A stretch of 64,000 bases of DNA from Candidatus Krumholzibacteriia bacterium (GCA_050174015.1 JBFXKG010000008.1:1-64000), one strand, 5' to 3'. Counted from the stretch's first letter, positions 11,001 through 56,834 are shown. The notes: a model not told the origin generated them from the sequence alone. Numbers and translations: made by a program.

Positions 11001-13800
11001 CCCGGTGCTGCAGCTCCGCTACCGGGCCTACAACAACGCCTACAACAGCGCCGAGACCTATCTGCAGGTTTCCAGCGACGGAGGCGGCACCTGGGCCACG
11101 CTGGGCCAGCTGGCGAACGTCTCGGTCTGGACGGTCGCCCGGTACTCCCTTGCGAGCTACCAGGGTGAACACAGCTTGCTGCTGCGGGCCCGGGCCTACG
11201 ACGGCGATTCGGGCAGCGCCAATCCCTGGTGCGACGTCGAGGACCTGGCCGTCACCGAGGCCTACGATCTGACGCCCATGGCCGACTTCTGCCGCCTGGA
11301 CTACCCCGAACGCATCTGGCTCAGTGCGGGACAGACCAGCTCGGTCATCACGGGCCGGGTCCACGAGCCCGGGGTCACGGACGCCGCAGGCCAGGGTGCC
11401 GGCGTCCGCGTGCAGCTGGGCTGGGGCCCCGCCGGGACCATGCCCATGGATCCGGCCAGCGCCTGGATCTTCAGCGACGCGGTCTACGCCGGCGACGCGG
11501 ACGGGGCCACCGTCGACCTCTACCAGGGCCACCTGGTGGCGGGCGCCGTCGGCCAGTACGACTACTGCTTCCGCACCAGCCTGAACGACGGGGACTTCTG
11601 GCTCTACGCCGACCTCGACGGCAACACGGTCGGCCAGGGTGCATTCGACTACTACGAGCGGGCGCAGGCCGGCCGCATGGTCGTGACCGTCGCCCCCGAC
11701 ATGGTGCTCAGCGCCACGGCCGTCGAGCTGTCCCTGCCGGTGGGCCAGGTGACCAGCCGGGTGCTGACTGTGGGCAACGAGGGGGTGGGACCCCTGGCTT
11801 TCGCGGCCGATGAGGCGACCGCCCCGCCGGCGCCCGCCGAGGTGACCTGGCTGTCGGTGGCGCCCGCCGAGGGCACCGTCCAGCCGCAGGCCTTCGCCCA
11901 GCTGGCGATCGCGATCGACGGCACGAACCTGAGCGAGGGCGATTACACCGCCACCGTGATGCTCTACTCCAACGACCCGGGCCAGCCGCGCCTGGACATC
12001 CCCGTCACCGTGCACATGGTGCCGCCGAGCGCGCCCCACGTGTCGGGAACCGTTCTTGACGTGGACTTCGCCGCCCCGCAGAACAGCGCCTTCGTGGAAC
12101 TGTACTCGGGGACGGCGCTGATCGGCCAGGCCACAGCGGGTGGCAACGGGTACTTCAGCATCTTCGGCGTGCCCGCCGGAACCTACCAGATCCGCGCGCA
12201 CAGCGAGGGCTACTACCCGGTCACGGCCGAGGTGACCGCCCCGGTGAGCGACGTGGCCCTGGTGCTGCACCGCGTCCCGTACTTCACGCCGACCAACACG
12301 AACGTCAACTTCTACGGTGAGCTCAGCTACCTCGACGGCGAGCTGCTGCGCAAGGGCGACGTGGTCACGGTCCAGGACCAGGACGGTATCGTCTGCGGTT
12401 CGTTCGACGTCCAGGTCGCCGGCTCCTACGGCTTCCTGCACGCCTACGGCGACGACCCGACCACGCCAGGGGTGGACGAGGGCGCCGAACCGGGGGACGT
12501 CCTGACCTTCCGGGTCAACGGCGAGCCGGCCTTCACCATGGGACCGGACACCGCGGTGTGGACCGGGGACGGGGACATCCGGCAGGTGGAGCTGTCGGCG
12601 GTCACCGTGACCGTCGATCGGATCCCCCTGAACGCCGGGTGGAACCTGGTGTCGTTCAACCGGGCGCCGCTGGATGATGCGGTGGCTGTGGTGTTGGAGG
12701 ACCAGATTGCCAGCGGCAATCTGGTCATAGCCTACGGATTCGACCAGCAGTGGGGCGGGGCGGTCACCTACGATCCGCTGCACCCCGAACTGAGCGATCT
12801 CGACACGATGGATCCCCAGCACGGCTACTGGCTCAAGGTCACCGCGCCGGACACCCTCGCGGTCGACGGCGCCATGTTCTGGCCCGACAATCCGCTGATC
12901 CTCGAGGGCGGCTGGAACCTGACCAGCTACCTGCCCGAGGAATCGCGCGGCGTGGTGCGGGCCCTCGGCTCGATCGACGGGGCGTACAGCCTGGTGAGCG
13001 GGTTCGAGGGCGGGGCATTGACCTACGATCCGCTGCATCCGGAGTTCAGCACCCTCGAGTACCTGCGCAACGGGTTCGGCTACTGGCTGAAGATGGATTA
13101 CTCCGCCGAGCTGGTCTACGATCAGGGCGGCGCCAAGTCCGGCGTCCGCAAACTGGACGACGTGGTGGTCCTCGACCTTACGCCCACCCCGTGGTGGGAC
13201 AGCTTCTACGGCGTGGCCAACATGGAGGGCACGCCGCTGCAGGTGGGCGAAACCATCCGGGCCATCGATCCCGACGGCGTGATCTGCGGCACGTTCGTCT
13301 GCCGCCAGCAGGGCATCTACGGGTACATGCCGATCTACGGCGATGATCCCACGACCCCCGAGGACGAGGGCGCGACCGCCGGCGACCGCATCATCTTCGC
13401 CTACGGCCCCGCGGGCGGGATGCAGACCCCGCCGGAGATCACCTGGCGCGGCGACCAGTCGCTGGTCCAGTTCGACCTGGACTTCCTGACGGGCGCGGAC
13501 GACGGCGCAGGCGACCTGCCCCGGCAGTTCGCGGTGCACGGCGCGCATCCCAACCCGTTCAATCCCATGACGGAGATCAGCTACGACCTGCCCCGCACGG
13601 CGCAGGTCGAGGTCGCGGTCTTCGACGTGGCGGGCCGCCTGATCACCAGGCTGGTGGACGGGGTCCAGGAGGCCGGCCGCAAGACCGTCCGCTGGAGGGG
13701 CCTGGACGACGCGGGCCGCCCCGTGGCCACCGGCGTGTACTTCTGCGGGGTCAGGTCTGGAGGTGAGACCGGCCTGACCAAGATGCTGCTCATCAAGTAG
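5056..13800 (+). CDS. Giant (2914 aa) secreted modular adhesin-like protein with a T9SS type-A C-terminal sorting domain
   Basis: Architecture: signal peptide; N-terminal FN3-like domain; five tandem ~410-aa super-repeats, each made of two MAM/choice-of-anchor-J-like beta-sandwich modules (FWH.YGF.TNADFGYVDVSTDGGAS...YRGQ.L.LRFR....GW.IDD) plus an FN3; a CarboxypepD_reg-like domain; repeated GDDPTTP.DEGA motifs; CTD ...PNPFNPMTEISYDL...GVYFCGVRSGGETGLTKMLLIK. Confidence 0.9.
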   Translation: MKRLFFALLLGLVCPGALLAADRIEVYPVLDPAAVKAMPEHHGLVRGSHDVELAWARVDLPDVAGFRILGARADAPDGKDALLAEVTGPDAVSARIGGLMVGTAYRFTVAAVDGDGTVLAVSDPVVGITAANAYPWADDLEGTLDDWDTAGSQWALTDSWSSSPTHSFTDSPDSNYQNATGRKLVTAVNLMTAQKPVLVFKQFYNILTDGDAGLVEVSTDAGSNWAVVGAVTGSSGGWLTERIDLSPYRGNLNLQIRWRLLTGTSGVSDGWYVDDVSVAETPYPVLSLPVYDNVNNAAHSDSLWFDAAWQRRTGGSDPGYCFDDSPWTPISDYLTSKLTLVNDVDLSSATHPWLVFQHKVDLAFQNFAKVEASIDGGANWSVLRTWTGPVAVADWTQVVVDLSAYAGGYLRLRFHLQNQGVNDGGGWELDKIQIQDVPETLALSLTANNSTRADLGWTAYSGGDFGSYEVYRSTTGDFLLDKDLVGTITASGTTILQDPVDAGTAYYYQVFVANTEGRYLGRSQILHRPAFALPVSAYPYVTDLESGGSEFMPGGTWALTTETANSGATSWSDSPGGNYANGTQHALTLQVDLAGGAATRPALAFWHQYGFESNADFGYLDVSTDGGATFVPIYVVTGTSGGWEQADMDLTSYRGQVLQVRWRVATSGSGQADGWHVDDIVLAENMESSPVYPLVDDFNDTAVTQARWLAGSFDLVTPSDNGTAYWTNRPAGGLADLYPGATSLVLGRPLDLSGAVEPQLRFRYRAFDNPYNTVETYLQASTDEGNTWTTLLRLGDSTSWTTAQVSMDTYGGAPSVLLRFHSYDYENGGASPWCDIEDFSLTDQPQDVTISLADNQPYEATLGWDATADPDFARYVIKYGTSPNLTVTSNTLTEITAAGTTSYVHSGLSPYDVYYYKVFVYDTQGVSSDGSNEITRPVLEPVLLSYPFNDDLEGGAGNFLADLPWAPSTETAHSGSWSWSDSPGANYANSLTSSFVFEVDLDGGAAVRPELSFWHQYGLQTGADYGFVDVSTDGGASYAPVYYVTGTSGQWRHARIDLTDYRGQILTVRFRLKTDASVQDDGWHVDDIALGESVLPDPGYPFFEDFDDSLAVMAQWVPGGFGLKGPGRDGSPYVTNRPSGYLPDYYPGATILGLGGDLDLSAAVHPQAHLWYRGYDNPYNSAQTYLQISQDGGETWTTLRHFGLNDAWTEAQIDLAAYASPVPVQLRLYAYDGESGGSQPYFDVDDFTITETPADVTVTLTDNQAYQATFSWTSAPAPGFGSYILKYGSSPNLTLSSATLATLTGAADTTFTHTGLSPYDTFYYKVFVKDAVGLLSGGSNEIARTPLQPPLLAYPFDDDMESGGDNFLTESPWAVTAETAHGGVWSWSDSPGGNYANNTNSSLVMRVDLGAGGAFRPVLAFWHRYGFETNADFGYVDVSTDGGASWIPVYSVTGSCGSWQKAEVDLTSYRGQVLQLRFRMKTGSSGQADGWHIDDIALGEVLPAPVAYPFHDAMNDSAVTRANWIPGGFVWTAPSGDGTSYWSNRATGALPDLYPGGTIMALRGSLMLAGAVHPQLSFRYRGYDSPYNSANNDVQVSQDGGANWITVKQLGNAADWTYQQVDLTGYVGMVPTLLRFSSYDGESGGSNPYLDLDDVGVSEKPGDVTLAVTDNQEYQATLTWTTPAVPGGFAGYEIKRSATAGITSATTTLAVITDPADTTFTDTGLSPNQNFYYKVFVRDAVGLISDGSNEVARLNLAPPLLAYPFSDDLEGGDGNFLPELPWELTDESAHSGSYSWSDSPHDNYANSLSLSLGLRVDMSGGAAQYPELSFWHLYGFQTNADWGRIEVSTDAGVSWSAISYVTGSSGVWKKERVDLTPYRGNVLWLRFRLSSDGSGQADGWHVDDVTIAERTDAAPVFPFYATFDDSAATAAQWLTGGFERISPSDNGSAYLSDQPTGACLNFYPGSTDLALGGELDLTGSANPVLQLRYRAYNNAYNSAETYLQVSSDGGGTWATLGQLANVSVWTVARYSLASYQGEHSLLLRARAYDGDSGSANPWCDVEDLAVTEAYDLTPMADFCRLDYPERIWLSAGQTSSVITGRVHEPGVTDAAGQGAGVRVQLGWGPAGTMPMDPASAWIFSDAVYAGDADGATVDLYQGHLVAGAVGQYDYCFRTSLNDGDFWLYADLDGNTVGQGAFDYYERAQAGRMVVTVAPDMVLSATAVELSLPVGQVTSRVLTVGNEGVGPLAFAADEATAPPAPAEVTWLSVAPAEGTVQPQAFAQLAIAIDGTNLSEGDYTATVMLYSNDPGQPRLDIPVTVHMVPPSAPHVSGTVLDVDFAAPQNSAFVELYSGTALIGQATAGGNGYFSIFGVPAGTYQIRAHSEGYYPVTAEVTAPVSDVALVLHRVPYFTPTNTNVNFYGELSYLDGELLRKGDVVTVQDQDGIVCGSFDVQVAGSYGFLHAYGDDPTTPGVDEGAEPGDVLTFRVNGEPAFTMGPDTAVWTGDGDIRQVELSAVTVTVDRIPLNAGWNLVSFNRAPLDDAVAVVLEDQIASGNLVIAYGFDQQWGGAVTYDPLHPELSDLDTMDPQHGYWLKVTAPDTLAVDGAMFWPDNPLILEGGWNLTSYLPEESRGVVRALGSIDGAYSLVSGFEGGALTYDPLHPEFSTLEYLRNGFGYWLKMDYSAELVYDQGGAKSGVRKLDDVVVLDLTPTPWWDSFYGVANMEGTPLQVGETIRAIDPDGVICGTFVCRQQGIYGYMPIYGDDPTTPEDEGATAGDRIIFAYGPAGGMQTPPEITWRGDQSLVQFDLDFLTGADDGAGDLPRQFAVHGAHPNPFNPMTEISYDLPRTAQVEVAVFDVAGRLITRLVDGVQEAGRKTVRWRGLDDAGRPVATGVYFCGVRSGGETGLTKMLLIK
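6661..11560 (+). repeat. Four in-frame tandem protein-coding repeats of ~1225 nt (units starting near 6661, 7889, 9111, 10339); a fifth, more divergent copy at ~5452-6660
   Basis: Each unit starts at a recurring (S/A)YPF.DDLEGG motif and the units are about 55-65% identical at amino-acid level. The periodic antisense ORFs on the minus strand are shadows of this repeat. Confidence 0.7.
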
Positions 13801-14070: not shown

Positions 14071-14784
14071 ATGCTCTTTTCATTATCCCGTGCCCCTCTG
14101 ATCCTGCTTCTCGTTCACCATCCCTGAGACCGGCGGCAACTTCCTGTACGAGGCCAGCATCGAGAACAACACCGGGATCGACACATGGCCGACCTCACCA
14201 TCGAGGCGGTCCTTCCCGACGGGACGGCGTACCCCGTGATGGACCTGCCCGGTGTGGTACTTGCGGGGGCGTCGGTAAGGACCCGGATCGGGATCGTCCA
14301 GGAGGTGCCTGCGGCGGCCCCAGCGGGAACCTACACTTACCGGGTATCGGCGAGCCTGTGGGACACCCTTCTGGTGGACACGGCCGAGCTTCCGTTCGAG
14401 AAACAGGGAGGGGTGGTGGCGGCAGCCGGAGCCATGGCCTGGCCCGTGACCGGCTGGCTGGATGATGACCGGCCTCCCTTTCAGGCGGGAGCGGTAAAGC
14501 CGGTCTTGTACGGCCCCGTCCCCAACCCCTTCAACCCCTCGACCACGGTGACCTTCGAGCTGCCCGCCCAGGAGACCGTCAGCTTGCACGTGTTAGACCA
14601 TCAGGGACGACTGGTCAGGACCCTCCTCAGCGGCGAGGTCGTTGCCCAGGGGCGCCACGAGGCCGTCTGGGACGGACGGGACACCTCCGGCCGGCAGGTT
14701 GCCAGCGGGACGTACTTCTTCCGGCTCGAGGCTGGAGGGCAAGTGGAGACGAAGCGTGCGGTTCTCATCAAGTCATTGTTGTAA
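14071..14784 (+). pseudogene. Frameshifted gene for a small T9SS-CTD protein; reading resumes in frame at 14185 (track ORF 14185..14784)
   Basis: ATG at 14071 with promoter and RBS gives MLFSLSRAPLILLLVHHP and then an in-frame TGA. A protein-like reading (ETGGNFLYEASIENNTGIDTW) continues in the +1 frame. It then returns to frame 0 at ADLTIEAV, where a GG vs GGG homopolymer marks the shift. The product ends with a T9SS CTD (..PNPFNPSTTVTFEL...GTYFFRLEAGGQVETKRAVLIKSLL). Confidence 0.4.
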
Positions 14785-18496: not shown

Positions 18497-21400
18497 TCAG
18501 CGCACCAGCACCAGACGGCGGACGGCGGTCTGCCCCTCGGCCATGAACCGGGCGAAGTAGATCCCCGAGGCCAGGCCGCTCGGTTGCCAGGTCACGCGAT
18601 GTTCGCCTGCCCCGCGCTGCTCGTTCACCAGGACGTCGATCAGGCGGCCCGTGGCGTCGTAGACCTCCAGGCGCGCATGGCCCGTCCTGGCCATGGTGAA
18701 GACCACGGTCGTGGTGGGGTTGAAGGGGTTGGGGTAGTTCTGCCCCAGCCCGAACCGCGAGGTCACCTGGTCGCCCACGCCGCTGGGGCTGCGGACGATC
18801 AGGAAGTCGGCCTTGATCATCGTATCGGATCCGCAGGGGCCGGTCGCGGTCAAGGTCACGGTGTACGTGCCCTCGGCCGTGTAGGTGTGCGACGGGCTCT
18901 GCAGGGTGTCGGTGGCGCCGTCGCCGAAGTCCCAGGCCCAGGCGGTCGGCCCGCCGGTGGACAGGTCGGTGAACGTCACCATCAACGGGTTGGGTCCGTC
19001 GGTCACGTCGGCGCTGAAGTCGGCGGCCACCAGGGTATCGACCGTGACGTACGCCGCGGCGGTCAGGGTGTCGATCCCGCCCGGCCCGAAGACGATCAGG
19101 CGGACGTCGAAGCTGCCGGGCGCGGTGTAGGTGTGCGAGGGGTTCTGGACCGTGTCGGTCGCCGCATCGCCGAAGTCCCAGTTCCAGCCGGTGACGGCCC
19201 CGGTGGATTCGTCGGTGAAGACAACGGTCAGGGGCGCGCAGCCGGAAACGGGCGTGCCGCTGAAGGCGGCCACCGGGCCGGCCGGGGCGTCCACGGTGAT
19301 CTCGAGGCTGGTGGTGTCGGCCCCGCAGGCGTTGCCGGCGATCAGCTGGACGGCGTAGACGCCGGCGCTGTTGAAGGTGTGGCTGGGATTCTGGGCGGTG
19401 CTCGCACCGTCACCGCCGAAGTCCCAGGCCCAGCTGGTGGGATCGCCGGTGGACAGGTCGGTGAAGTCGATCGCCAGAGGCGCGGTGCCCGTGGTGTCCG
19501 AAGCACTGAATGCCGCGGTCGGCGGGCCGGTCACGGTGATCATCCCCGTGACGGTCTTGGCGTCGCTGCCGCCGGGACCGGTGACGGTCAGGCTGACGTC
19601 GTAGATGCCGGGGGCGGCGTATTCGTGGGAGGGGTTCTGCACCGTATCGATGCCGGCATCGCCGAAGTCCCAGGCCCAACCGGTGATGTCGCCGCCGGAC
19701 AGGTCGGTGAAGGCCACGGTGAGCGGCGCGCAGCCGCTCACGGGATCGCCGCTGAAGTCGGCAACCGGAGCCGCCGGAGCGTCCACGATGATGTCGAGGC
19801 CTGCGGTGTCGGCGCCGCAGGCGTTGGTGACGATCAGCTGGACGGCGTAGGTGCCCGCGCCGCTGAAGATGTGGCTGGGATTCGGGTCGGTGCTCGTGCC
19901 GTCGCCGCCGAAGTCCCAGGCCCAGGTGTCGGCGCCGCCGGACATGTCCGTGAAGTCCACGGCCAGGGGCGCGGTGCCGGTGGTGTCGGAGGCGCTGAAG
20001 GCCGCGAAGGGCAGGCCGCCCACGGAGATGTGGTCGGTCATGACGGCGGTGTCGCTGCCGCCGGGACCCATCACCGTCAGGCTGACCGTGTACAGGCCGG
20101 GGCCGGCGTACTCGTGGGTGGGGCTCGGGTCAGCGCTGTTCTGCCCGTCCCCGAAGTCCCAGTTCCAGGTGTCGATGTCCCCGGTGGACTGGTCGGTGAA
20201 GGCCACGCTCAAGGGGGCGCAGCCGCTGGTCACGTCGGTCGTGAACGCCGCGACGGGCGGGGGCGGTGCTGTGACGGTGATGTAGTTCAGCTTGGAGCCC
20301 GTGCCCTGGCCGCAGTTGCTGGTGGCCACCAGGACGACCGAGTAGGTGCCGGGGGCGGTGTAGGTGTGGACGGGATTCTGCTCGGTGCCGTTGGTCGAAT
20401 CCCCGAAGTACCAGTACCAGGAGGTGGGGCTCTCGGTGCTCAGGTCGGTGAAGGACACGGTCAGGGGAGCCACCCCGGACACGGGGGTCGCCGAGAAGTC
20501 GGCGACCGGCGTCCCGTAGATGGTGATCATGCCGGGAATGGTCAGGGTGTCGCTGCCGGCCGGTCCGGTCACGGTCAGGCTGACGGTGTAGGTGCCGGGG
20601 GCGGAGTAGGTGTGGCTGGGGTTCTGCGCGGTGGACGTCCCGCCGTCGCCGAAGGTCCAGGCCCAGCTGGTGACCGTCCCGGTGGACTGGTCGGTGAAGA
20701 GGACGGCGGTCGGCGCGCACCCGGTGGTGCCGTTGGAAGTGAAGGCGGCGGTGGGAGCCACCGCGGCCCCGGCGAGGGCGGCGGCCGCATCGACCATGCC
20801 GTACCCGGTGTAGCGGTCCCAGCCGGCTCCGGACTCGACGCTCGTGATGTCCAGGGCGGTGTTCTTCATCTGGTCGCGGATCTGGGTCGGGGTCCAGCCA
20901 GGATTGGCGGCCTTGATCAGTCCGGCCAGGCCGGCGGCGTAGGGGGTCGAGCAGGACGTGCCGTTGAAGAAGGGCTCGTAGTTGCTGGTCTGGTACCCGG
21001 CGCTGCCGGTGATGTCGGTGGTGGGCAGGATGGTGGGGGCGATGAGATCGACGGCGCCGGCATGGTCCTGCACGGTGCTGCCGTAGTTGGAGCCCCACCA
21101 GCGCTCGCCGTCGCAGGTGTAGCCGTTGGGATCGGCGTTGACCCCGGGATTGAGCTCGCTGGTGTTGCTGCTGGATCGCTTGCGCTCGCCGCAAGGCGAG
21201 GCGGCGCCGATGCCGATCACGTAGGTGTTGATGGCGGGGTAGCTGATGACCGAGGCGTTCTCGTTCCCGGTGGCGGCCAGCAGGACGACTCCGCTGTTCC
21301 AGGCGTACTGGATGGCGTTGTCCATGAGGGCGTAGCTGCTGATGGCCGCGCCGAAGCTCATGCTGGCCACGTCGGCGCCGTTGTTGGCGGCGAAGTTGAT

Positions 21401-22306
21401 GGCGTTGGCCGCGGAGGACAGGTACATCGAGCCCGCGGAATTGGCGACCTTCAGGGGCATGATGCTGCAGGCGCCCGCCATCCCGGCCACGACGTTGGCG
21501 TTGTTGGCGATGCCCGCGGCCACCCCGGCGCAGCAGGTCCCGTGGCCGGCGGCGGCGCTGTCGTCCATGGGATTGGAGTCGTTGTCCCCGTAATCATAGC
21601 CCGCCACCAGGTTCAAGTCCGAGTGGGCGGTGTCGACGCCCGTGTCGATGATCGCGATGACCACGCCGCTGTTGCCGTAGCCCTGGTAACCGTCCCAGGC
21701 GGTCTGGGCGTTGGAGTCGAAGCCGACGGTGCCCACGGGTGGGCCGGTATGGTCCCAGGTGGTTCCCCAGGCGTAGCTGGGCAGCTGGGCGGTGTTGTTG
21801 TGGCCCCAGTTGTTGGGGTAGTAGGGGTCGTTGGGGACGGCTGCGGGGAAGACCCGGTAGTCCGGCAGGGCTTCCTCGAGGCTGGGATCGGCGGCCAGCC
21901 GGCCGGCCAGACCAAGGATGTCGGTTCCCGCGGGCACGTCGAACCGGAACCAGCGTTCCAGCCCGATGCCGTCCGCGGCGGCCTTGTCGGGCATCTCCCC
22001 GAAGAAGCACTCGATCAGGGTGACCCCGGCCTCGGCGATGATGGCGTCGAGGGAAACCAGCCCCGTCCTGTTGCCGGGCACGGCCGCGCCCTTCTCGGTG
22101 GGCAGGGCGAAGGCGGCCTTCTCCATGGCGTCGGGCGTGAACTTGACCATCACGCGGTCGGGAGCGTACAGCTCCACCTGGTCCCCGGTGGGGGCGAACC
22201 CGGCCTGAACCGGAGCGAAATCACGGGTGGGGGCCTGGCCGAAGGCCATGGAAGTCATTGCCACCATGGCGATAACAAGAAGGGCGAGCAGGGCGGAACG
22301 TTGCAT
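18497..22306 (-). CDS. Secreted subtilisin-like S8 serine peptidase with eight tandem PKD domains and a T9SS type-A CTD
   Basis: Catalytic motifs VIAIIDTGVD (Asp), AGHGTCCAGVAAG (His) and GTSCSTPYAAGLAGL (Ser). Eight PKD domains (..WAWDFGDG.TSTAQNPSHTY..GTYTVSLTVT..). CTD GQNYPNPFNPTTTVVF...GIYFARFMAEGQTAVRRLVLVR. Signal peptide MQRSALLALLVIAMVAMTSMAFG; start is M22 of the track ORF, with a GAGGTGAT RBS. Confidence 0.9.
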   Translation of the reverse strand: MQRSALLALLVIAMVAMTSMAFGQAPTRDFAPVQAGFAPTGDQVELYAPDRVMVKFTPDAMEKAAFALPTEKGAAVPGNRTGLVSLDAIIAEAGVTLIECFFGEMPDKAAADGIGLERWFRFDVPAGTDILGLAGRLAADPSLEEALPDYRVFPAAVPNDPYYPNNWGHNNTAQLPSYAWGTTWDHTGPPVGTVGFDSNAQTAWDGYQGYGNSGVVIAIIDTGVDTAHSDLNLVAGYDYGDNDSNPMDDSAAAGHGTCCAGVAAGIANNANVVAGMAGACSIMPLKVANSAGSMYLSSAANAINFAANNGADVASMSFGAAISSYALMDNAIQYAWNSGVVLLAATGNENASVISYPAINTYVIGIGAASPCGERKRSSSNTSELNPGVNADPNGYTCDGERWWGSNYGSTVQDHAGAVDLIAPTILPTTDITGSAGYQTSNYEPFFNGTSCSTPYAAGLAGLIKAANPGWTPTQIRDQMKNTALDITSVESGAGWDRYTGYGMVDAAAALAGAAVAPTAAFTSNGTTGCAPTAVLFTDQSTGTVTSWAWTFGDGGTSTAQNPSHTYSAPGTYTVSLTVTGPAGSDTLTIPGMITIYGTPVADFSATPVSGVAPLTVSFTDLSTESPTSWYWYFGDSTNGTEQNPVHTYTAPGTYSVVLVATSNCGQGTGSKLNYITVTAPPPPVAAFTTDVTSGCAPLSVAFTDQSTGDIDTWNWDFGDGQNSADPSPTHEYAGPGLYTVSLTVMGPGGSDTAVMTDHISVGGLPFAAFSASDTTGTAPLAVDFTDMSGGADTWAWDFGGDGTSTDPNPSHIFSGAGTYAVQLIVTNACGADTAGLDIIVDAPAAPVADFSGDPVSGCAPLTVAFTDLSGGDITGWAWDFGDAGIDTVQNPSHEYAAPGIYDVSLTVTGPGGSDAKTVTGMITVTGPPTAAFSASDTTGTAPLAIDFTDLSTGDPTSWAWDFGGDGASTAQNPSHTFNSAGVYAVQLIAGNACGADTTSLEITVDAPAGPVAAFSGTPVSGCAPLTVVFTDESTGAVTGWNWDFGDAATDTVQNPSHTYTAPGSFDVRLIVFGPGGIDTLTAAAYVTVDTLVAADFSADVTDGPNPLMVTFTDLSTGGPTAWAWDFGDGATDTLQSPSHTYTAEGTYTVTLTATGPCGSDTMIKADFLIVRSPSGVGDQVTSRFGLGQNYPNPFNPTTTVVFTMARTGHARLEVYDATGRLIDVLVNEQRGAGEHRVTWQPSGLASGIYFARFMAEGQTAVRRLVLVR
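18750..20690 (-). repeat. Eight in-frame tandem PKD-domain coding repeats (~245-270 nt period)
   Basis: Periodic protein repeats. The stacked plus-strand ORFs 18885-20813 that all begin M.GLW/FW.VSV..SPKSQAQ are antisense shadows of this periodicity. Confidence 0.65.
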
Positions 22307-22439
22307 GGGGATCACCTCGGGGCTGGTGAACGAGGACGGTTCTGGCCGATGATCAACCAAGAATACCAAATAATTGTTGCAAATTCATCACGTGATATCC
22401 GCAAAAATCCTTTTTTGATGACAAATTGTCATAATCCGT

Positions 22440-23377: not shown

Positions 23378-23788
23378 TTATTGTCCGTTGGACAGCTGGA
23401 TGATCAGGGCCTGCTTGCCGAAACCGGTGATCGTGTAGCCCACATTGACTCCGCCCGCCGCGATCGCCTGGACCCCCAGCTGACCCGTCGCGGCCGCCAC
23501 GGCCGAGAACTGGGGCTCGGTGTTGGCGCCGGTGAAGGCGTTCTGCAGCCGATGGGCCCCCGGCAGGATGGGCAGGAGGTCCGCCTGCTGGTCGGAATAC
23601 CGGCCGTCGTTGCGGACGGCGAAATCCTCGACGGCGAGTTGGAGGGTGTGGGCGTGGTTCTGGACCTTCGCTTCCTTGGCCCGCTCCTGCATGGACAGGT
23701 AGTTGGGGATGGCCAGGGTGGCGAGGATGCCGATGATCAGGACGACGATCATCAGTTCGATGAGGGTGAAGCCGGAACGATTGTCCAT
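23378..23788 (-). CDS. Type IV pilin / pseudopilin-like protein with a prepilin N-terminal methylation motif
   Basis: [28 protein letters not shown]: class III signal with G/F cleavage site and E+5. AGGAG RBS. No other pilus genes in the window. Confidence 0.8.
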
Positions 23789-24002
23789 GGGTACTCCTGG
23801 GAGACGCTTGGGTTCACTCCGTTATCGGCAGGGGACGACCGGTTTTGAGCGAAAATTTGCCGGGCGGGTCCTGCAACCCCGCCTTTCGGAGGTCCCGGGC
23901 AGGTATTATCTTGGGGAGTCGGGTGGCCGCAGGCCCGGCCCCAGGCGCCGGGCCCCGCGGTTCGGGCCACCCCCGGAACGCAACGATCAAGGAGGCAGGG
24001 TC

Positions 24003-24908
24003 ATGGAGACTCCATGGACCGACAAGCAGACGGCGGAGAGGTACCGCCACAAGGTGGGCCTGGCCGAGATGCTCAAGGGCGGCGTCATCATGGACGTGAC
24101 CAACGCCGAGCAGGCCAGGATCGCCGAGGAGGCCGGCGCCGTCGCCGTCATGGCCCTCGAGCGCATTCCCTCGGACATCCGCAAGATGGGGGGCATCGCC
24201 CGCATGTCCAATCCCGGCATGATCAAGGCGATCCAGGCGGCGGTGTCCATCCCCGTGATGGCCAAGTGCCGCATCGGCCACTTCGCCGAGGCCCAGATCC
24301 TCGAGGCCCTGGGCGTGGACTTCATCGACGAATCCGAGGTCCTGACCCCCGCCGACAACGCGAACCACGTCTTCAAACACGACTTCAAGGTTCCCTTCGT
24401 CTGCGGTTGCCGCAACCTGGGCGAGGCCCTGCGCCGCATCGGCGAGGGCGCGGCCATGATCCGCACCAAGGGCGAGGCCGGCAGCGGGGACATCGTCGAG
24501 GCCGTCACCCACATGCGCGAGGTGACCGAGGGCATCCGCCGCCTGCAGACCCTGCGGCGGGACGAGCTCATGGCCGAGGCCAAGCGCCTGGGCGCTCCCT
24601 ACCACCTGGTGATCGAGACGGCCGAGCTGGGCAAGCTGCCCGTGCCCAACTTCGCCGCCGGCGGGGTGGCCACCCCGGCCGACGCCGCCCTGATGATGCA
24701 GCTGGGCGCCGAGACCGTGTTCGTCGGCAGCGGCATCTTCGCCAGCGAGGATCCCGCCCCGCGGGCCAAGGCGATCGTCGATGCGGTGACCTACCACGAC
24801 GACCCGGCCAAGCTGCTGGAAGTGTCGCTGGCCCTGGGCGAGGCCATGAAGGGCCGCGCCGTCAACGAGATGGAAGAGAACGAGAAGATGGCCGGCCGCG
24901 GCTGGTAG
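24003..24908 (+). CDS. pdxS: Pyridoxal 5'-phosphate synthase lyase subunit PdxS
   Basis: Highly conserved Pdx1/SNZ sequence (..[38 protein letters not shown]..). AAGGAGG RBS. Start is M101 of the track ORF. Confidence 0.95.
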
Positions 24909-24977
24909 CGATTCCGGCGGAACACGGCCCGGGCCCCTTGGTGCGTCCGGGCCTCTTCATTGGAGCGATGATCCTCG

Positions 24978-25574
24978 ATGTCCAAGCCCGTCGGCCTGCT
25001 GACCCTGCAGGGTGATTACGAGAAGCACCGCCAGGCCTTCGGGGCCCTGGGCCGCAAGACCAGTGGGGTGCGCCGGCCGGAGGAGCTGGACCGGGTGTCC
25101 TGCCTGGTCATCCCGGGGGGCGAATCGACAACCCTTTCCCGCCTCATCGATCGGATCGGCCTGCGGGAGCCGCTGCGTCGGTTCGCCGCCGACCACCCGG
25201 TGATGGGCACCTGCGCGGGGCTGATCATGCTCGCCGGGGCGCTCGAGGGGGAAGAGGAGACCGACTTCGGGGTCAAGCCCCTCGGCCTGATGGACTGCAC
25301 GGTGCGGCGCAACGGCTACGGGCGGCAGGTCGATTCCTTCACCGCTCCGGTGGCCGCCGCGGGACTGGGCGCCGCGGAACCCCCGTTCGCGGCGGTGTTC
25401 ATCCGCGCCCCCCGCATCACCGCGGTGGGGCCGGGGGTCGAAGTTGTCGCCCGGCACGGGGACGAGCCGGTCGCCGTCCGCCAGGGACGCCTGCTGGGGC
25501 TGACCTTCCATCCGGAACTGACGGACGACCTGCGGATCCACCGGTCGTTCCTGGACCTTGCCGGTTCGGTCTGA
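24978..25574 (+). CDS. pdxT: Pyridoxal 5'-phosphate synthase glutaminase subunit PdxT
   Basis: ..VGLLTLQGDYEKH.., catalytic Cys in ..PVMGTCAGLIML.., the HPE motif (..LTFHPELT..), and adjacency to pdxS. Confidence 0.92.
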   Translation: MSKPVGLLTLQGDYEKHRQAFGALGRKTSGVRRPEELDRVSCLVIPGGESTTLSRLIDRIGLREPLRRFAADHPVMGTCAGLIMLAGALEGEEETDFGVKPLGLMDCTVRRNGYGRQVDSFTAPVAAAGLGAAEPPFAAVFIRAPRITAVGPGVEVVARHGDEPVAVRQGRLLGLTFHPELTDDLRIHRSFLDLAGSV

Positions 25575-45330: not shown

Positions 45331-46551
45331 CTACGGCCCAAAATCAGGTGAGGGCAATCCCCGCGGTCTCGTCTCAGGCGCCGGCAATCCCTGCGCCCCC
45401 GGCGCGGGTATCCCCGGCTCCTTCTCGTGGATGTGCCGGTGGCAGGCGCCGCAGAGGGTGATCAGGTTGTCGGGCCTGTTCGTGCCGCCCCGGGCCCGCG
45501 GCAGGACGTGATGGACCTCCAAAAACCGGGTGTTCCTGCAACCGGGCCCCTGGCAGCGGTGGCCGTCCCGAGCCAGCACCCGCCGCCGCACCTGGGGCGG
45601 GATGGTGGCGGTGTTGCGCCCGGTCCGGGGATCGTCGCTGCGGGAATCGCAGGTCACCCGTCCGGCGTCCCCCGGGCCGAAGGTCACCTCCCCCCGGCTG
45701 GTCGCAGCCGAAAAACGGCCGCAATCGGGGCATTGGCGCACGTGAACCTGGAAAGAGGTCCCCCGGGGGCCCCTCCGGGGTGCCGGTTCGGGGGTGCCCG
45801 CGGTGAGGTCGGCGGCCCCGCCGGTCGAGGGGGTGGCCCGGGCCCCGGCCTCGGTGTCGACCTGCCCATCGGCCTGGGCGCCGGCGGCCCCTGGTTCACC
45901 GCAGCCCAGGGCGTCCTCCAGCAAGGAATCCAACCCGGCGAGGATCCGCTCGACCCGGTCCCCGCCGATTCCCGACTTTGCCAGCTTTTCCTGAAGGGCC
46001 TCGAACCGGGCGAACTGCTCGGGGGTCATCTCCAGGGACACCTTGACGGGGACGGCCGCGGCCAGCCGCCGTTCGGCCGGGGCCGCGGGGATCAGTTCCC
46101 CCTGGCCGGGTGAGGTCCTCAGGTCGGCGGCCTGGGCCCGCACCCTGGCGACGTCCTCAGCCAGTCTGCCCCTCGGGGTCGTGCAGGCCACCTTCACCCA
46201 TTCCTTCTCGGTGGCCGGGGTGGCGACCTTGATGATCTCGCGGGCCTTGGTGTAGCCGATCTTCCCGGTCTCCAGGGATTTCCTGATCTGCGGCAGATCG
46301 TCCAGTTTCCGGGCCATGCGGACGAAATCCCCGGTCCTGGTCTTCGAAAAGCCGAGCGCCTGCTGAGCGTAGATCTGGATGGAAGGGAATCCGAGATCCC
46401 GGTACAGACCGCGCGCCATGACGTCGGCGAACCAGAGGACGGCGCAGTGGCGGGCCTGGTCCATGATCCGGACGGCCTGCTGGAGGGAGGCGTGGGCGGC
46501 GGCGGCGGTCTGGCCGGGCTGGAAGACGGGGATGGGGGTGCTGGCAGGCAT
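45331..46551 (-). CDS. DUF222 (13E12-repeat-type) N-terminal domain + HNH endonuclease protein; selfish/mobile-type gene
   Basis: HNH core ..RCQGPGCRNTRFLEVHHVLPRARGGTNRPDNLITLCGACHRHIH... The N-terminus resembles DUF222 (..AVLWFADVMARGLYRDLGFPSIQIYAQQALGFSKTRTGDFVRMARKLDDLP..). AGGAGGAG RBS. Flanked by AT-rich non-coding DNA. Confidence 0.8.
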   Translation of the reverse strand: MPASTPIPVFQPGQTAAAAHASLQQAVRIMDQARHCAVLWFADVMARGLYRDLGFPSIQIYAQQALGFSKTRTGDFVRMARKLDDLPQIRKSLETGKIGYTKAREIIKVATPATEKEWVKVACTTPRGRLAEDVARVRAQAADLRTSPGQGELIPAAPAERRLAAAVPVKVSLEMTPEQFARFEALQEKLAKSGIGGDRVERILAGLDSLLEDALGCGEPGAAGAQADGQVDTEAGARATPSTGGAADLTAGTPEPAPRRGPRGTSFQVHVRQCPDCGRFSAATSRGEVTFGPGDAGRVTCDSRSDDPRTGRNTATIPPQVRRRVLARDGHRCQGPGCRNTRFLEVHHVLPRARGGTNRPDNLITLCGACHRHIHEKEPGIPAPGAQGLPAPETRPRGLPSPDFGP

Positions 46552-53068: not shown

Positions 53069-53379
53069 GGTCGATCCTTTGCTGGGAGAGGGGCTGGCCG
53101 CCAGGGGGCCGATCAGCCGGCCGGAATGTCACCGATTGTCGGTCGTCGGTCGTCGATTGGAGTGGCCAAGATAGCACATGACCCGCCCGGATTCACGGCT
53201 GGGTTGTCGGCTCCTCCGGCTGATCCGTACCTTCCCTGGGAGGATGTTCGACCGCACCCAGGGCCGGCGGGACGCGTCGATCGTCGGGAACAGGAACCCC
53301 ATTCCGAATATCCCGGGGTGCGGATGGAGTTGCCTGGCCAGGGTCCGTCCCCGAGGGTGGACGATCCCGGCCGCATCGA

Positions 53380-54687
53380 CTACGGCAGGAACCGGCCGAC
53401 CTCCGCCAGCTTGTTGGGCAGGTACTCGTCGATGACGTAGTTCAGGCCGTGCTTGGCCAGGGCCTGCTGTTCGGCGCGGACCCCCATCTTGATCATCTGC
53501 TCGAGGGCCTTCTGCCAGGCCTTGTAATGGAGGATGAAGGGGTCGTTCTTGAGGGCGTCGCGGGCCCGTTTGACGTCCACGTCCTTCAGCGGGTGGGTGG
53601 GCAGCTCGTAGTCGATGATGTCCTGGGGCGTGATCCCCAGCAGGTGGGCCTGGGGCACGCAGAAGAACTCGTTCAGGTGGGCGGCGTTGCCGCTGCCGAC
53701 CTTCAGTGTGCGGTAGATGTTGCTGTAGCCGTAGGGGTCGCCGTCCACGAAGACGTAGACCGGCAGGCCGTGGCTGTCGGCCAGACGCCGCACGAAACGC
53801 CGACAGGCGCGCGTGGGCACCCCGCCCAGGCTGACGAGGATGCAACTCGCCTGCTTCCAGTAGTTGTGCTTGACCAGGCGCTGGAACATGCCGGCGGTCT
53901 CGATGCAGAGGATGAACTGGGCGTCGGTCTCGAACTCCAGATCCTCCACCGAGATGGGGATGGAGTAGGCGCCGCTGCCGAATCGCGTGCAGTCGATGCG
54001 CAGCTTCTCGCCGGTGTCGCGGTCGTGGTCGACGACGACCAGCCGTCCGGCCACGTCGCCGCCCTTCTCCTCGGGCACGAAGCCCAGCTGTTCGCGGTTG
54101 ACCGCGAAGAAGGCCTCGACGTCCTCCATCACCGTGTCCGATTCGGGCTGCTCCTTGAACCGGGCCTCCGCCCAGTTCTTGCTCACGTAGTAGGCCTCCC
54201 GCTTCGTGGCGATGTCGTCGGTCTCGATCAGCTCCTTGGACAGGGCCATCATCTTCAGGGTCTGGGCGAAGGTCTTGACCGTGTTGACGGTCAGGGTGCG
54301 TTCCTTCTTCTTGCCCCTCATCTTGAAATACCCGATGGAGGGGTCGTAGCTCACGTTGTTGAGCGAGCGCAGGGGGAAGTCCATCTGGGGCTTCTCGCCC
54401 AGGAGGATCTTCTGCCGGATGATGTTCGACTCGCTGCGGATGCGCCGGGACACCTTGTTGAACGACACCTTGGGAGCTTCCCCGGCGGGGAGGGCCCCGG
54501 CATCCGACGCCTCGCGGGAGGCCGCACCGGCGGCGGCCTTGGAGGCGGCCCCGGCGGGGGCCTTGGCCCGCGGCGAGGTCCCGCCGAACCCGAGCTCGCC
54601 CTGGGCGGCCGGCGTGCCGGCGGCCTTGGCGGGGGCTTTCTTCGCGGTCGTCTTCTTGCCCGGGGTCTTCTTCTTGGCTGCGGCCAC
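53380..54687 (-). CDS. top6A: DNA topoisomerase VI subunit A (Spo11/Top6A homologue) with a ~75-aa Lys/Ala/Pro-rich N-terminal extension
   Basis: Toprim region ..LPVYVFVDGDPYGYSNIY.. and the 5Y-CAP/winged-helix region, collinear with archaeal Top6A. GTG start preceded by an AAGGAA RBS, 24 nt after the top6B stop. GC3-rich through the KA-rich head. Confidence 0.85.
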   Translation of the reverse strand: MAAAKKKTPGKKTTAKKAPAKAAGTPAAQGELGFGGTSPRAKAPAGAASKAAAGAASREASDAGALPAGEAPKVSFNKVSRRIRSESNIIRQKILLGEKPQMDFPLRSLNNVSYDPSIGYFKMRGKKKERTLTVNTVKTFAQTLKMMALSKELIETDDIATKREAYYVSKNWAEARFKEQPESDTVMEDVEAFFAVNREQLGFVPEEKGGDVAGRLVVVDHDRDTGEKLRIDCTRFGSGAYSIPISVEDLEFETDAQFILCIETAGMFQRLVKHNYWKQASCILVSLGGVPTRACRRFVRRLADSHGLPVYVFVDGDPYGYSNIYRTLKVGSGNAAHLNEFFCVPQAHLLGITPQDIIDYELPTHPLKDVDVKRARDALKNDPFILHYKAWQKALEQMIKMGVRAEQQALAKHGLNYVIDEYLPNKLAEVGRFLP

Positions 54688-54711
54688 GGTGCGTTCCTTC
54701 GCGTTGGTCGT

Positions 54712-56400
54712 TTAGAGTTTCCGGCTGCGCTCGAGGGTGTCGGTCAAGGTCTCGATGACCTCGTTCCTCTCGGCGTCGCTGATCTCCAGGATCTCCTGCA
54801 GGGCGTCCCCGATGTGGGGGATGTACTTCTGGATGTAGCTCTGCTTCTTGGCCGCGTCCTTCTCGCGCTCGCGGCGGCGGATGTGCCTCTGCAGCCGGCG
54901 GCCGGCCTCCTGCAGGGCCAGGCGGATCTCCTTGATGATCTCGGGATAGTGGGCGACCGCCTCCTTGCTCTCGCTCGTGAAAGGCACCCAGACCGAGGCC
55001 ATGTGCACGAGGATGACCAGGGGGCCGCCGGGCAGGGCGCCCTTGCTCTGCTGCAGGCCGTAGCTTCGCCAGTTGCTCGTCAGAACCGACTTGTGGATGG
55101 CGCAGGCCGAAGCCTGGTACAGCAGGGGCACCCGGTTGGCGAAACGCATCACCTTGGCCAGGTCGTCGGCGGGCAGCTTGCCGCCGTAGGCGATGCCGAC
55201 CTCGATCTGGAAGGGGTTGCCGCGGTACACCGCCGCGGGCCGGGTCACCGAGGTGTAGAAGTCGGCCTCGACGCCGGTCTTCAGGCCGGCCATCACCAGG
55301 TCCTCGCCGATCGGGGAAAGACAGTCGGTGGGCGGGGCGGCGATCTTCGTGTCGGCGATGGCGTCCAGCAGCTTCTGGACGTCGTCCTGCACGAGTCGCT
55401 TCGGATTCTTGCGCGGCGGCAGGCCGGCGGTCTCCAGGATGGTCTCGGCGGTCTTGGGGCCGACCTTGCAGAACTCGTCCTTGAGGAAGGAGGCGAGGTT
55501 GCGGCTAGAGGTGTCGGCCAGCATCCGCGACAGGATTCCCATCTCCACGCCGTAGGGATGGGGCTTGATCTCGGCGGCCTCGGGAGGCAGTTCGCTGGTG
55601 GCGTTGGGATAGACGATGGTCTCGCCCTTGGGGTCCTTGTAGGTCAGGTGCAGGTGGGGGTTGGCGATGGCCGTCTGCTCGAGGTAGTTGTCCACCGAGT
55701 GCTGGCCCCGCTTGTAGCTGCCGGTCAGGACGATCTCGATGCGGGTGCCGTGGTCCTTCTCCCAGACGGTCTCGTCCCCGCTGAGGATCACCGGTTCGTT
55801 CTTCTTCATGTCCAGCAGCAGCTGGAACCGGTGGGCGGGCTTCTTCGCCCCGGTGCGGCTGTAGACCGTCACGGGCTTGCCGGTCGTCAGCTGGCCGTAC
55901 ATCCCGGCGGCCGAGATGCCGATGCCCTGCTGGCCGCGGCTCTGCTTCAGGCTGTGGAACTTCGAACCGTAGAGCAGCTTGCCGAAGATCCGGGGGATCT
56001 GGGCGGCCACGATGCCGGGCCCGTTGTCCTCGACGATGATCTTGTACCGCTCCTCGTTCTTCACCCCGCGGGCTGCGGTGTCGTTGCGCCCGGCCTTGCC
56101 GTTGCCGTTGCCGTTGGCGCCGGAATCCGGATCCTGCTGGCTGCTCAGTTCCAGGCCCAGGTTCACGGGCTTGTCCGGCCTGATCTCCACCAGGAGCCGC
56201 GGGGCGATGCCGGCCTCCTCGCAGGCGTCGAGGCTGTTGTCCACGGCTTCCTTGATGGTGGTCAGCAAGGCCTTGGCGGGCGAGTCGAAGCCCAGCAGGT
56301 GCCGGTTCTTGGTGAAGAACTCGCTGATGGAGATCTCACGCTGCTTCTCGGCCATGGACTGGGCGTCTTTGGGACTGCGCTGCGGCTGGGGAGCGGCCAT
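54712..56400 (-). CDS. top6B: DNA topoisomerase VI subunit B (GHKL ATPase + transducer)
   Basis: Bergerat-fold motifs ..[14 protein letters not shown].., ..[10 protein letters not shown].., ..[13 protein letters not shown].. and the transducer domain. Immediately upstream of top6A. Confidence 0.88.
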
Positions 56401-56834
56401 TCACGACACCTTCCGTGGTGGTGGTTCTTCCCTGGAATCTGCGATGGGCCTGGACGACGTCAGGCGCCGGAGGCTTGCGGCGCAGGAACTGTAAAAAAGC
56501 GGGAGGCGGAGGTCAACCCCGGCTTGCGGAGCCGGTGGCGGTCGGGCGGGGGAGTGTCGCCCCCCGGAAGCGGCCCGAGGACCGGGGCCGGCGATTCACG
56601 CACCATCGGGCAGAGATGGTCCGGGGGGCGACGACGCGATGCAACTTCTTGCAGCACACCGGGTGCCAGAAGCCCCGGCCGGATCCTGCCGTTGCCTGCG
56701 GAGGAGCGGCGTTCCCCGGAATTCCCCATGACGGCCGGATCGGCCTCCTCCCGCAGGAGGACCCGCCCCGGCCGATCGGGCAATCCGGCCGACCGACCCC
56801 GCGCCGGGGTTGCAGGATGGCCAGGAACGAGGAA

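Follow-up and report, generated by a model that had tools for sequence, protein, structure and literature searches.

A bacterial topoisomerase VI from Candidatus Krumholzibacteriia with a predicted disordered, polybasic tail and a near-invariant, possibly clamp-binding peptide island

Topoisomerase VI (topo VI) is encoded by the two-gene operon top6B-top6A in a 64,000-nucleotide stretch of DNA from Candidatus Krumholzibacteriia bacterium (GCA_050174015.1 JBFXKG010000008.1:1-64000), all of which was analysed and is referred to below as the window. Judged by its motifs, the locus is an intact, complete and catalytically competent type IIB topoisomerase (A2B2). The A subunit opens with a tail which, as comparison with homologues shows, has three parts: a polybasic patch (amino acids (aa) 1-28), a near-invariant Q-x-E-L-x-F(-G-A-P) island (aa 29-37) and a fast-evolving linker (aa 38-75). 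The B subunit carries an insertion in its GHKL ATPase domain. The overall best explanation, to which we assign a probability of roughly 0.5, is that the enzyme is a decatenase whose tail binds DNA and probably also tethers it to the beta sliding clamp. The features on which the argument turns are as follows.

54712..56400, minus strand: top6B, topoisomerase VI subunit B, with GHKL ATPase, H2TH and transducer domains and no C-terminal Ig-like domain (ATG start, 562 aa; open reading frame (ORF) with Pfam and NCBIfam matches)
53380..54687, minus strand: top6A, topoisomerase VI subunit A, with N-terminal tail, winged-helix/CAP and Toprim domains (GTG start, 435 aa; ORF with three Top6A Pfam domains)
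54463..54687, minus strand: Top6A N-terminal extension, aa 1-75, predicted to be disordered and not present in archaeal Top6A (alignments, composition and low-confidence models)
54604..54687, minus strand: polybasic N-terminal segment, aa 1-28, MAAAKKKTPGKKTTAKKAPAKAAGTPAA, with 8 Lys and no acidic residue (composition)
54583..54603, minus strand: conserved island QGELGFG, aa 29-35 (hexapeptide Q29-F34), a candidate beta-clamp-binding element (tail comparison)
56053..56172, minus strand: lineage-specific insertion in the Top6B GHKL domain, about 38-40 aa (aa ~77-116), between the N-box helix and the G1 box (Top6B residues 77-119 have no counterpart in 2q2e_B and 2zbk_B)

The island emerged from a comparison of about 110 tailed proteins, found among 120 close homologues, with 80 genomic loci, which together yielded 162 unique tails of at least 25 aa. 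The pattern Q-x-[E/S]-L-x-F occurs in 137 of these tails, compared with 0.02 expected from 500 composition-preserving shuffles (maximum 1). Across the aligned islands, Gln is invariant (141/141; frequency 1.00) and Glu (0.95), Leu (0.99) and Phe (0.99) are nearly so, followed by the less strictly kept Gly (0.69), Ala (0.53) and Pro (0.52). Position 2 varies (G 48%, P 19%, A 17%, Q 8%), position 3 is E in 95% and S in 4% of islands and rarely D, and position 5 is mostly Gly; rare length variants read QADLF (protein P0037) and QASLF (locus L038). In the window, the peptide around the island residues Q29, L32 and F34 is TPAAQGELGFGGTSPR. The flanks of the island consist of unconstrained K/A/P/T/S sequence that shows no positional conservation. 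At the codon level, first and second positions of the island are fixed in about 100% of cases and third positions vary (Glu as GAG 31 times and as GAA 11 times; five different Leu codons), and this synonymous variation indicates that selection acts on the peptide and not on a nucleic-acid element.

The remainder of the tail is defined by composition. Residues 1-75 of the window protein include 25 Ala, 11 Lys, 2 Arg, 10 Gly and 7 Pro (K+R 17%, A 33%, P 9%; net charge +9), and the only large hydrophobic residues after Met1 are L32, F34, L66 and V74. Homologous tails span 35-126 aa in total. Among 107 homologues, the segment before the island is 1-62 aa long with a net charge of 0 to +23 (median +7), and the linker after it is 16-110 aa long with a net charge of -8 to +27, being net acidic in 12 of the 107 proteins; the shortest tails (35-40 aa) retain the island even where the basic part is as small as RKKK. 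By this comparison, the conserved property is the order polybasic patch, island, flexible linker and core, and K/A/P richness is a variable one. A preliminary description of the locus had interpreted the extension as a DNA-binding tail of the histone H1/AlgP type. This holds for the window copy in so far as it is rich in K/A/P and carries a charge of +9; however, composition varies among homologues, some linkers are acidic, no Pfam family matches the tail, and inspection, made by eye and not with a repeat-finding tool, revealed no regular tandem repeat of the KPAA or SPKK type in the window, only scattered AKKAP, AKAAG and AKAPAG. That account also overlooked two conserved features, namely the Q29-F34 island and the co-inherited Top6B insertion. 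Its statement that the tail is foreign to canonical Top6A agrees with the archaeal structures and with about 50 distant full-length Top6A representatives, among which no comparable tail was found. A weaker second island, G-P-P-R-[T/L], lies 20-60 aa after Q-x-E-L-x-F in 35 of 107 island-bearing tails and is not clearly present in the window (compare AASRE at aa 56-60); PPRT also occurs in one basic tail without the island (L043).

Several observations bear on whether the tail is translated. After the in-frame top6B stop, translation could first begin at the GTG at 54687; the next in-frame starts are at codons 74, 79 and 102. Residues 77-101 align to archaeal Top6A and to NCBIfam profiles. Residue 78 corresponds to S. 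shibatae residue 16 and residue 100 to M. mazei residue 37, and the M. jannaschii 1D3Y chain begins opposite residue 133; the extension reaches about 62-64 aa past the N-termini of the solved archaeal proteins. G+C content at third codon positions (GC3) is 0.92 within the tail. The corresponding start codon in related loci is most often TTG or GTG, with ATG used in some, and in most loci an AAGGA- or GGAGG-like Shine-Dalgarno element precedes it. AlphaFold2 models of Top6A (mean pLDDT, the predicted local distance difference test, of 38 from a single sequence and 55.5 with a shallow, uniform 48-sequence alignment), which are of low confidence overall and were used only for the lack of structure in residues 1-75, place no secondary structure there and begin the first helix at 77. 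The tail is therefore, on sequence grounds, real and translated, since the GTG is the sole in-frame start before codon 74, a Shine-Dalgarno element is present, homologues are alike and the island codons vary synonymously. The GTG start with a good ribosome-binding site given in the preliminary description thus holds.

It is highly improbable that the extension is an annotation artefact in which the true start is V74, V79 or M102 and the K/A/P region is a 5' untranslated region. The GTG is a non-canonical start and high-GC DNA readily yields long spurious ORFs, which would favour such an error. Against it stand the conservation of an in-frame peptide with synonymous variation in more than 130 sequences, the Shine-Dalgarno element ahead of the start in both the window and its homologues, the alignment of core residues 77-101 to archaeal Top6A, and the tail GC3. 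Initiation at M102, the internal Met that had been named as a possible true start, would delete the conserved core 77-101 and leave an untranslated region conserved as peptide. The present analysis has effectively refuted this reading. As a separate observation, a simple heuristic applied to loci L001-L059 assigned TTG to 20, GTG to 20 and ATG to 12 top6A starts, so that about three quarters are non-ATG, each after a Shine-Dalgarno-like element; these prevalent TTG and GTG starts may represent a conserved setting of A:B stoichiometry or of low expression.

The distribution of tail types was mapped on a neighbour-joining tree of the Top6A core, rooted on M. jannaschii. In the basal group the tail is absent or very short, and a second group, with Thermoanaerobaculia, Multivoradales and Eiseniibacteriota labels, has purely basic tails without the island. 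The sister of this basic-tail group is monophyletic, mostly labelled Krumholzibacteriota and inclusive of the window, and the island is found in every complete sequence within it. Comparison thus shows a stepwise elaboration from no tail, to a basic tail, to a basic tail with an invariant island and a GHKL insertion. All 39 full-length Top6B proteins paired with an island-bearing Top6A have an insertion of 25-85 aa, and none of the 22 paired with an island-less one does; these have an 18-aa hairpin instead. The insertion is rich in Asn, Gly, Lys and Ala, and only one column (Leu) reaches 80% conservation; a hydrophobic-acidic-hydrophobic element (Phi-[E/D]-Phi) is frequent, though missing in L014, L027, L029 and L036. 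On this topology, the island arose once and on the same branch as the insertion, and because both map to one branch and hence to a single evolutionary event, their co-occurrence does not by itself show functional coupling.

The proposal favoured here is that the island is a short linear motif by which topo VI binds the beta sliding clamp (DnaN) in its hydrophobic pocket, for which the odds fall just short of even. Through the island, topo VI would be anchored to clamps at replication forks or in their wake, the site of precatenane formation, and the length and flexibility of the linker would leave the tethered holoenzyme free to act. The polybasic patch, which would emerge beside the junction of winged-helix domain and stalk, may add non-specific DNA affinity, probably on the arms of the gate segment (G-segment) near the junction between Top6A and the Top6B stalk. 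In its complete form, in which a type IIB topoisomerase with a genuine clamp-binding motif on a disordered polybasic tail and a co-evolved ATPase-domain insertion would be recruited to DNA-loaded clamps and unlink precatenanes behind the fork, the proposal is tentative and the odds lean somewhat against it.

The published clamp-binding consensus is QL[S/D]LF or Q-phi-x-[L/M]-x-[F/L], in which positions 1, 4 and 5/6 are the most important, and verified hexapeptide binders from E. coli include Pol III alpha (1154-QVELEF-1159), Pol IV (QLVLGL) and Hda (QLSLPL). The island has Gln at position 1, Leu at position 4 (99%) and Phe at position 6 (99%). Clamp partners usually bind through their N- or C-terminal regions, and broad QxxLF matches in unstructured loops have served to identify new partners; the island lies in an N-terminal region that is poor in hydrophobic residues and, in the low-confidence models, devoid of predicted secondary structure, consistent with an exposed, terminal position. 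Near-invariance of the island also implies that the partner surface must be highly conserved, while the Top6B insertion ranges between 25 and 85 aa in length. A six-frame scan for Q.EL.FG in 0.93 Mb of related DNA (about 13 kb per genome) found only Top6A tails and three antisense artefacts, and is uninformative on a hub partner. The archaeal and eukaryotic PIP box (PCNA-interacting peptide), Q-x-x-[LIM]-x-x-[FY]-[FY], was considered and rejected: the F of the island, at +5, precedes G (69%) and A (53%), and there is no aromatic pair.

A number of points weigh against clamp binding. At position 2 of the island, Gly or Pro predominates in place of an aliphatic residue (L/I/V/A), although the broader QxxLF usage does not require one; Ala at this position weakens binding to the clamp, and hexapeptide motifs bind some clamps only weakly. 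Clamp motifs are not known to include the conserved G-A-P that follows the Phe, and the literature searched contains no type II topoisomerase with a clamp-binding motif and hence no precedent. Given that the island and the Top6B insertion share a branch, a role within the enzyme would also explain the pattern. The island must also be regarded as accessory, because relatives of the second group function with a basic tail that lacks it. Furthermore, that topo VI is most likely the decatenase/relaxase of the cell, in the role that topo IV has in other bacteria, is inferred from the archaeal and plant enzymes; topo VI of M. mazei is reported, in unpublished data cited in PMC11302465, to complement an E. 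coli parE(ts) strain.

A docking site on topo VI itself, either the GHKL insertion or a conserved surface of Top6B or Top6A, would make the tail a strap that couples the ATPase gate to the DNA gate. The joint presence of island and insertion (39/39 versus 0/22, on the same branch) accords with such a strap, a linker of 16-110 aa could plausibly span the enzyme, the insertion often contains the Phi-[E/D]-Phi element, and domain-swapped N-terminal straps exist in Top6B. However, one evolutionary event has little statistical weight, and the pairing of a poorly conserved insertion with an invariant island is not expected of mutually docking partners. In the AlphaFold2 model from the 48-sequence alignment, itself poor, pLDDT does not rise at residues 29-37 and the island is not docked on Top6A. 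Docking within the enzyme is accordingly considered unlikely. Doubtful to a greater degree is a tail that, in the manner of histone H1 or AlgP, simply raises affinity or processivity through non-specific DNA binding, with the island having no separate partner. The K/A/P-rich window tail of charge +9 would suit it, as would the second-group relatives, in which purely basic tails without an island indicate that a basic tail is useful alone; in Streptomyces TopA, lysine repeats are reported to stabilize the enzyme-DNA complex and raise processivity (PMC5714199). Yet electrostatics would leave unexplained the 95-100% invariant Q, E, L and F, among which are an acidic residue and the region's sole hydrophobic ones, amid unconstrained sequence, as well as the retention of the island where the basic part amounts to 3-4 residues, the net acidic linkers of 12/107 proteins and the missing Pfam match.

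Improbable, and the least favoured of the tail functions weighed here, is recruitment by the island to another conserved partner, such as SMC-ScpAB, ParB, the single-stranded DNA-binding protein (SSB), RNA polymerase, or a protease adaptor for which the island would be a degron. Partners that position bacterial topoisomerases are known (MukB for topo IV, through ParC; SSB for topo III), and the G-A-P extension and the Gly or Pro at position 2 are atypical of clamp motifs. The match to the clamp motif nevertheless extends over three anchor positions, the alphabet at position 3 and the pentapeptide variants, and we know of no peptide motif resembling Q-x-E-L-x-F for SMC-ScpAB, ParB, SSB, RNA polymerase or protease adaptors. 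Binding of the island to the clamp is thus retained as the preferred, if tentative, explanation.

The identity of the enzyme itself is supported by profiles, structures and catalytic residues. Top6A matches TP6A_N (PF04406; 59 bits against a cut-off of 26), Topo_VI_alpha (64 bits; an all-beta domain) and TOP6A-Spo11_Toprim (PF21180; 199 bits over its full length, 1-170 of 170), and its best NCBIfam model, NF003337, scores 497 bits, under the 675-bit cut-off of that model. Top6B matches HATPase_c and Topo-VIb_trans (PF09239; 205 bits) and exceeds the cut-offs of two NCBIfam equivalogs (NF003218, 697 bits against 274; TIGR01052, 537 bits against 381). In structure-based comparison, Top6A aligns to M. 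jannaschii Top6A (1D3Y) with E=7e-119 and a core identity of 59% over 301 aa, and Top6B to M. mazei Top6B (2q2e_B) with E=1e-152; since the latter alignment ends near residue 508-518 of the 621 in the M. mazei protein, the bacterial subunit lacks the Ig-like C-terminal domain. The Bergerat and Toprim motifs, described beforehand as typical, align with those of the solved structures, and the description of a complete top6B-top6A operon of true topo VI is borne out by the ORFs, the profiles and the following catalytic residues.

54187..54189, minus strand: Top6A catalytic tyrosine Y167, with R163, in REAYY (aligned to 1D3Y chain residue 35 in LREAYYVSKNW)
53899..53901, minus strand: Top6A Toprim glutamate E263 in CIETAG (structure-sequence alignment)
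53737..53745, minus strand: Top6A Toprim DxD, D315-G-D317, in VDGDPYG (structure-sequence alignment)
56236..56238, minus strand: Top6B Asn55 of the Bergerat-fold N-box (VDNSLDA), a Mg-ATP ligand (aligned to EAVDNALDA of M. mazei and ELIENSLDA of S. shibatae)
56011..56028, minus strand: Top6B G1 box DNGPGI, aa 125-130 (aligned to 2q2e_B and 2zbk_B)
54964..54966, minus strand: Top6B transducer switch lysine K479 in SESKEA (aligned to SESKDA of M. mazei and SAGKES of S. shibatae)

If the 1D3Y chain starts at residue 69 of full-length M. jannaschii Top6A, as we take it to do, Y167 would be the equivalent of Y103 in that protein. Top6B additionally has a G2 box, GQQGIG, at aa 156-161 (aligned to 2q2e_B and 2zbk_B) and a WKxY-type element, WRSY, at aa 444-447. 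By analogy with its family, the enzyme would carry out ATP-dependent duplex strand passage. No other topoisomerase or replication gene lies within the window.

Two further identities were examined and excluded. In topo VIII, the B and A modules form one polypeptide, and Mini-A is a stand-alone truncated A protein, typically of plasmids or integrated elements (on topo VIII, compare PMC4117785). In the window the genes are separate and full-length, their best matches are topo VI equivalogs and they lie in a conserved chromosomal neighbourhood of housekeeping genes, and the alternative raised in the preliminary description, that the proteins belong to topo VIII or Mini-A, accordingly fails. A nuclease of the Wadjet JetD/MksG type would find its sole encouragement in a PADLOC JetD match of 28.7 bits, which covers only the Toprim part and is well under the 199 bits of the Top6A Toprim domain; Top6B has no such match, and there are no JetABC or SMC-like neighbours and no plasmid context.

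The two genes are on the same strand with top6B upstream, and the top6B TAA stop is separated from the top6A GTG by 24 nt; top6B is likewise upstream on the same strand in 71 of 80 related loci. Candidate expression signals are present ahead of both genes, and the scan for promoter consensus upstream of top6B found one site against 0.2 expected.

54694..54700, minus strand: Shine-Dalgarno-like GAAGGAA, 6 nt 5' of the top6A GTG (sequence inspection)
56409..56414, minus strand: Shine-Dalgarno-like GGAAGG, 5' of the top6B ATG (sequence inspection)
56488..56516, minus strand: sigma-70-like promoter candidate, TTGACC, 17 nt spacer, TACAGT, about 90 nt 5' of top6B (consensus match only)

Since the top6B TAA and the top6A GTG share a reading frame, a B-A fusion through readthrough of this stop was considered; it was rejected, as a shared frame occurs in only 7 of about 45 adjacent pairs, which is not above the one-in-three chance. 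In about 17 related genomes the pair is split by about 1.5 kb, with a gene for an M32 carboxypeptidase of about 500 aa (Taq-type; PF02074, 578 bits) lying between top6B and top6A on the same strand (L014, L017, L019, L026, L027, L029, L032, L035-L037, L041, L042, L045, L046, L048, L049). In these loci top6A retains its own start, tail and island. The carboxypeptidase was considered as a functional partner of topo VI and judged to be an unrelated insertion. Directly 3' of top6A, relatives have a MarR-family regulator gene (L081, 11530-12090; L082, 8436-9023), in place of which the window has about 310 bp of non-coding sequence (53069-53379) before the NUDIX gene.

The operon appears to be native to its host. 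GC3 is 0.95 for both genes, within the range of 0.79-0.96 for genes of the window, and the neighbourhood (sulfatase, top6B, top6A, NUDIX, methyltransferase, malate/lactate dehydrogenase, M14 peptidase, NAGPA) is conserved in contigs L081 and L082, the Top6A proteins of which are 82% and 94% identical to that of the window. An exact match to the window Top6A was sought in public assemblies and not found, and its context was read from these close homologues. Because of this native GC3 and conserved synteny, the topo VI operon is, by sequence criteria, a stable chromosomal resident, as had been supposed from its codon usage. Window proteins carry traits of the Fibrobacteres-Chlorobi-Bacteroidetes (FCB) group, including C-terminal sorting domains of the type IX secretion system (T9SS), FlgD-Ig domains and large secreted peptidases. 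Among Top6A relatives, the closest (70-94% identity) derive from metagenome-assembled genomes labelled Candidatus Krumholzibacteriota/Krumholzibacteriia, and others from Latescibacterota, Eiseniibacteriota and Thermoanaerobaculia/Acidobacteriota. Core identities of 70-94% also cross phylum labels (Krumholzibacteriota, Fibrobacteraceae, Gemmatimonadales, Actinomycetota, Acidobacteriota), several of which are probably placeholders or mis-binned contigs.

In a species-representative genome set, at least 350 topo VI loci were confirmed among the first 600 pattern matches, indicating that the enzyme is common in this group of phyla; the description of topo VI as sporadic in bacteria agrees with the literature as a general statement and does not hold for this group. 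A search of 1.84 billion representatives, where clustering at 50% reduces the whole clade to one representative and leaves finer distribution unresolved, gave as the nearest other full-length Top6A representatives archaeal proteins (Methanothrix, DPANN) of 35-39% identity. On these comparisons, the window enzyme is in a tight bacterial clade, and its closest characterized relative is Top6A of Methanococcales. Seventeen families of bacterial topo VI have been described, including those of Planctomycetota, Myxococcota, Nitrospira, Bdellovibrio and alpha-proteobacteria, and one published bacterial cluster adjoins Methanococcales (Allen and Maxwell 2024; PMC11302465); the core identity of 59% to M. 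jannaschii agrees with this placement.

Other observations were made among the distant Top6A representatives and elsewhere in the window. Many of the distant representatives are 750-1060 aa long (P0157, P0159, P0160, P0163, P0164, P0185, P0198, P0223 and others); some match in two separated stretches, suggesting intein-like interruptions, and others only at the C-terminus, behind an N-terminal region of about 600 aa. One of them, P0185, opens with the Top6B-like sequence SISISEFF...KEAVDNAIDA, which suggests a B-A fusion. Within the window, a giant predicted surface protein of 2914 aa (5056-13800, plus strand) combines MAM/InhA-like, Reelin subrepeat-B, fn3, BNR, CarboxypepD_reg and BACON domains with a C-terminal FlgD-Ig domain. 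A subtilase with eight PKD domains and a Por_Secre_tail, the type IX secretion sorting domain (18497-22369, minus strand), and a small FlgD-Ig/Por_Secre_tail protein (14185-14784, plus strand) support an FCB-group host with a T9SS. A 406-aa protein (45331-46551, minus strand) has a C-terminal HNH endonuclease domain and about 330 unannotated N-terminal residues. The pyridoxal-phosphate synthase pair PdxS (SOR_SNZ) and PdxT (SNO) is encoded at 23703-25574 (plus strand); the mechanically called PdxS ORF has about 114 extra N-terminal residues and overlaps a pilin-like gene (23378-23788), and its true start is probably further downstream.

For specialists, a topo VI in bacteria is in itself no surprise, and its bacterial role is described as still needing work (PMC11302465); it is on this open question that the invariant clamp-like island bears. 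The locus extends topo VI to uncultured phyla outside the survey of Allen and Maxwell, namely Krumholzibacteriota and the neighbouring Latescibacterota, Eiseniibacteriota and Acidobacteriota. Were the island a clamp handle, a type II decatenase would be physically linked to the replisome via the universal clamp hub. To our knowledge, no such mechanism is known for gyrase, topo IV or archaeal topo VI. To judge from the literature searched, the enzyme would then be the first type II topoisomerase known to be tethered to the clamp, and would provide a testable answer to the role of topo VI in bacteria. Even with a different partner, the island would mark a specific and strongly selected protein-protein contact on a topoisomerase, and would serve as a handle for finding its cellular partners.

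In comparison with known systems, the enzyme is a new lineage member of the known topo VI family, and the module of tail, island and insertion is, as far as the literature searched shows, undescribed. Topo VI is an A2B2 enzyme that performs ATP-dependent strand passage with a preference for decatenation (PMC8837201), and cryo-electron microscopy has shown that the DNA arms run along the Top6B stalk, the WKxY motif as well as the H2TH domain. The window enzyme shares with archaeal topo VI (1D3Y; M. mazei, 2Q2E; S. shibatae, 2ZBK) the two-subunit architecture, domains, catalytic residues, and the WKxY-type and basic stalk elements that contact the DNA arms. In contrast to these, its host is bacterial, its Top6A is extended at the N-terminus by about 62-75 aa that include the polybasic patch and island, and its Top6B has a GHKL insertion of about 38-40 aa and no Ig-like C-terminal domain as found in M. 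mazei. The previously described bacterial enzymes are likewise archaeal-derived and resident, and the C-terminal domain is absent from the bacterial and eukaryotic Top6B proteins modelled in that study; however, none of its families is from Krumholzibacteriota, Latescibacterota, Eiseniibacteriota or Acidobacteriota, and no N-terminal tail, clamp-type motif or GHKL insertion is described there (PMC11302465).

With beta-clamp motifs, the window island shares Q at position 1, an acidic or small polar residue at position 3, L at position 4, a small residue at position 5 (as in QLVLGL), F at position 6 and a terminal, unstructured context, and the QADLF and QASLF of relatives are canonical pentapeptides. 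It differs from them in having Gly, Pro or Ala at position 2 (not Leu or Val), an extra G-A-P and a type IIB topoisomerase as carrier. The lysine-repeat tails of actinobacterial TopA (Streptomyces, Mycobacterium) are likewise low-complexity, Lys/Ala-rich extensions on a topoisomerase; TopA, however, is a type IA enzyme with a C-terminal tail in which the available portions of the sources note no embedded motif, whereas the tail of the window protein is N-terminal, variable in basic content and equipped with a conserved island. The concept of a decatenase tethered to the replication or segregation machinery is shared with the topo IV ParC-MukB and topo III-SSB pairs, which use folded domains or the SSB tail, in contrast to the short linear motif in a disordered N-terminal tail that is proposed here.

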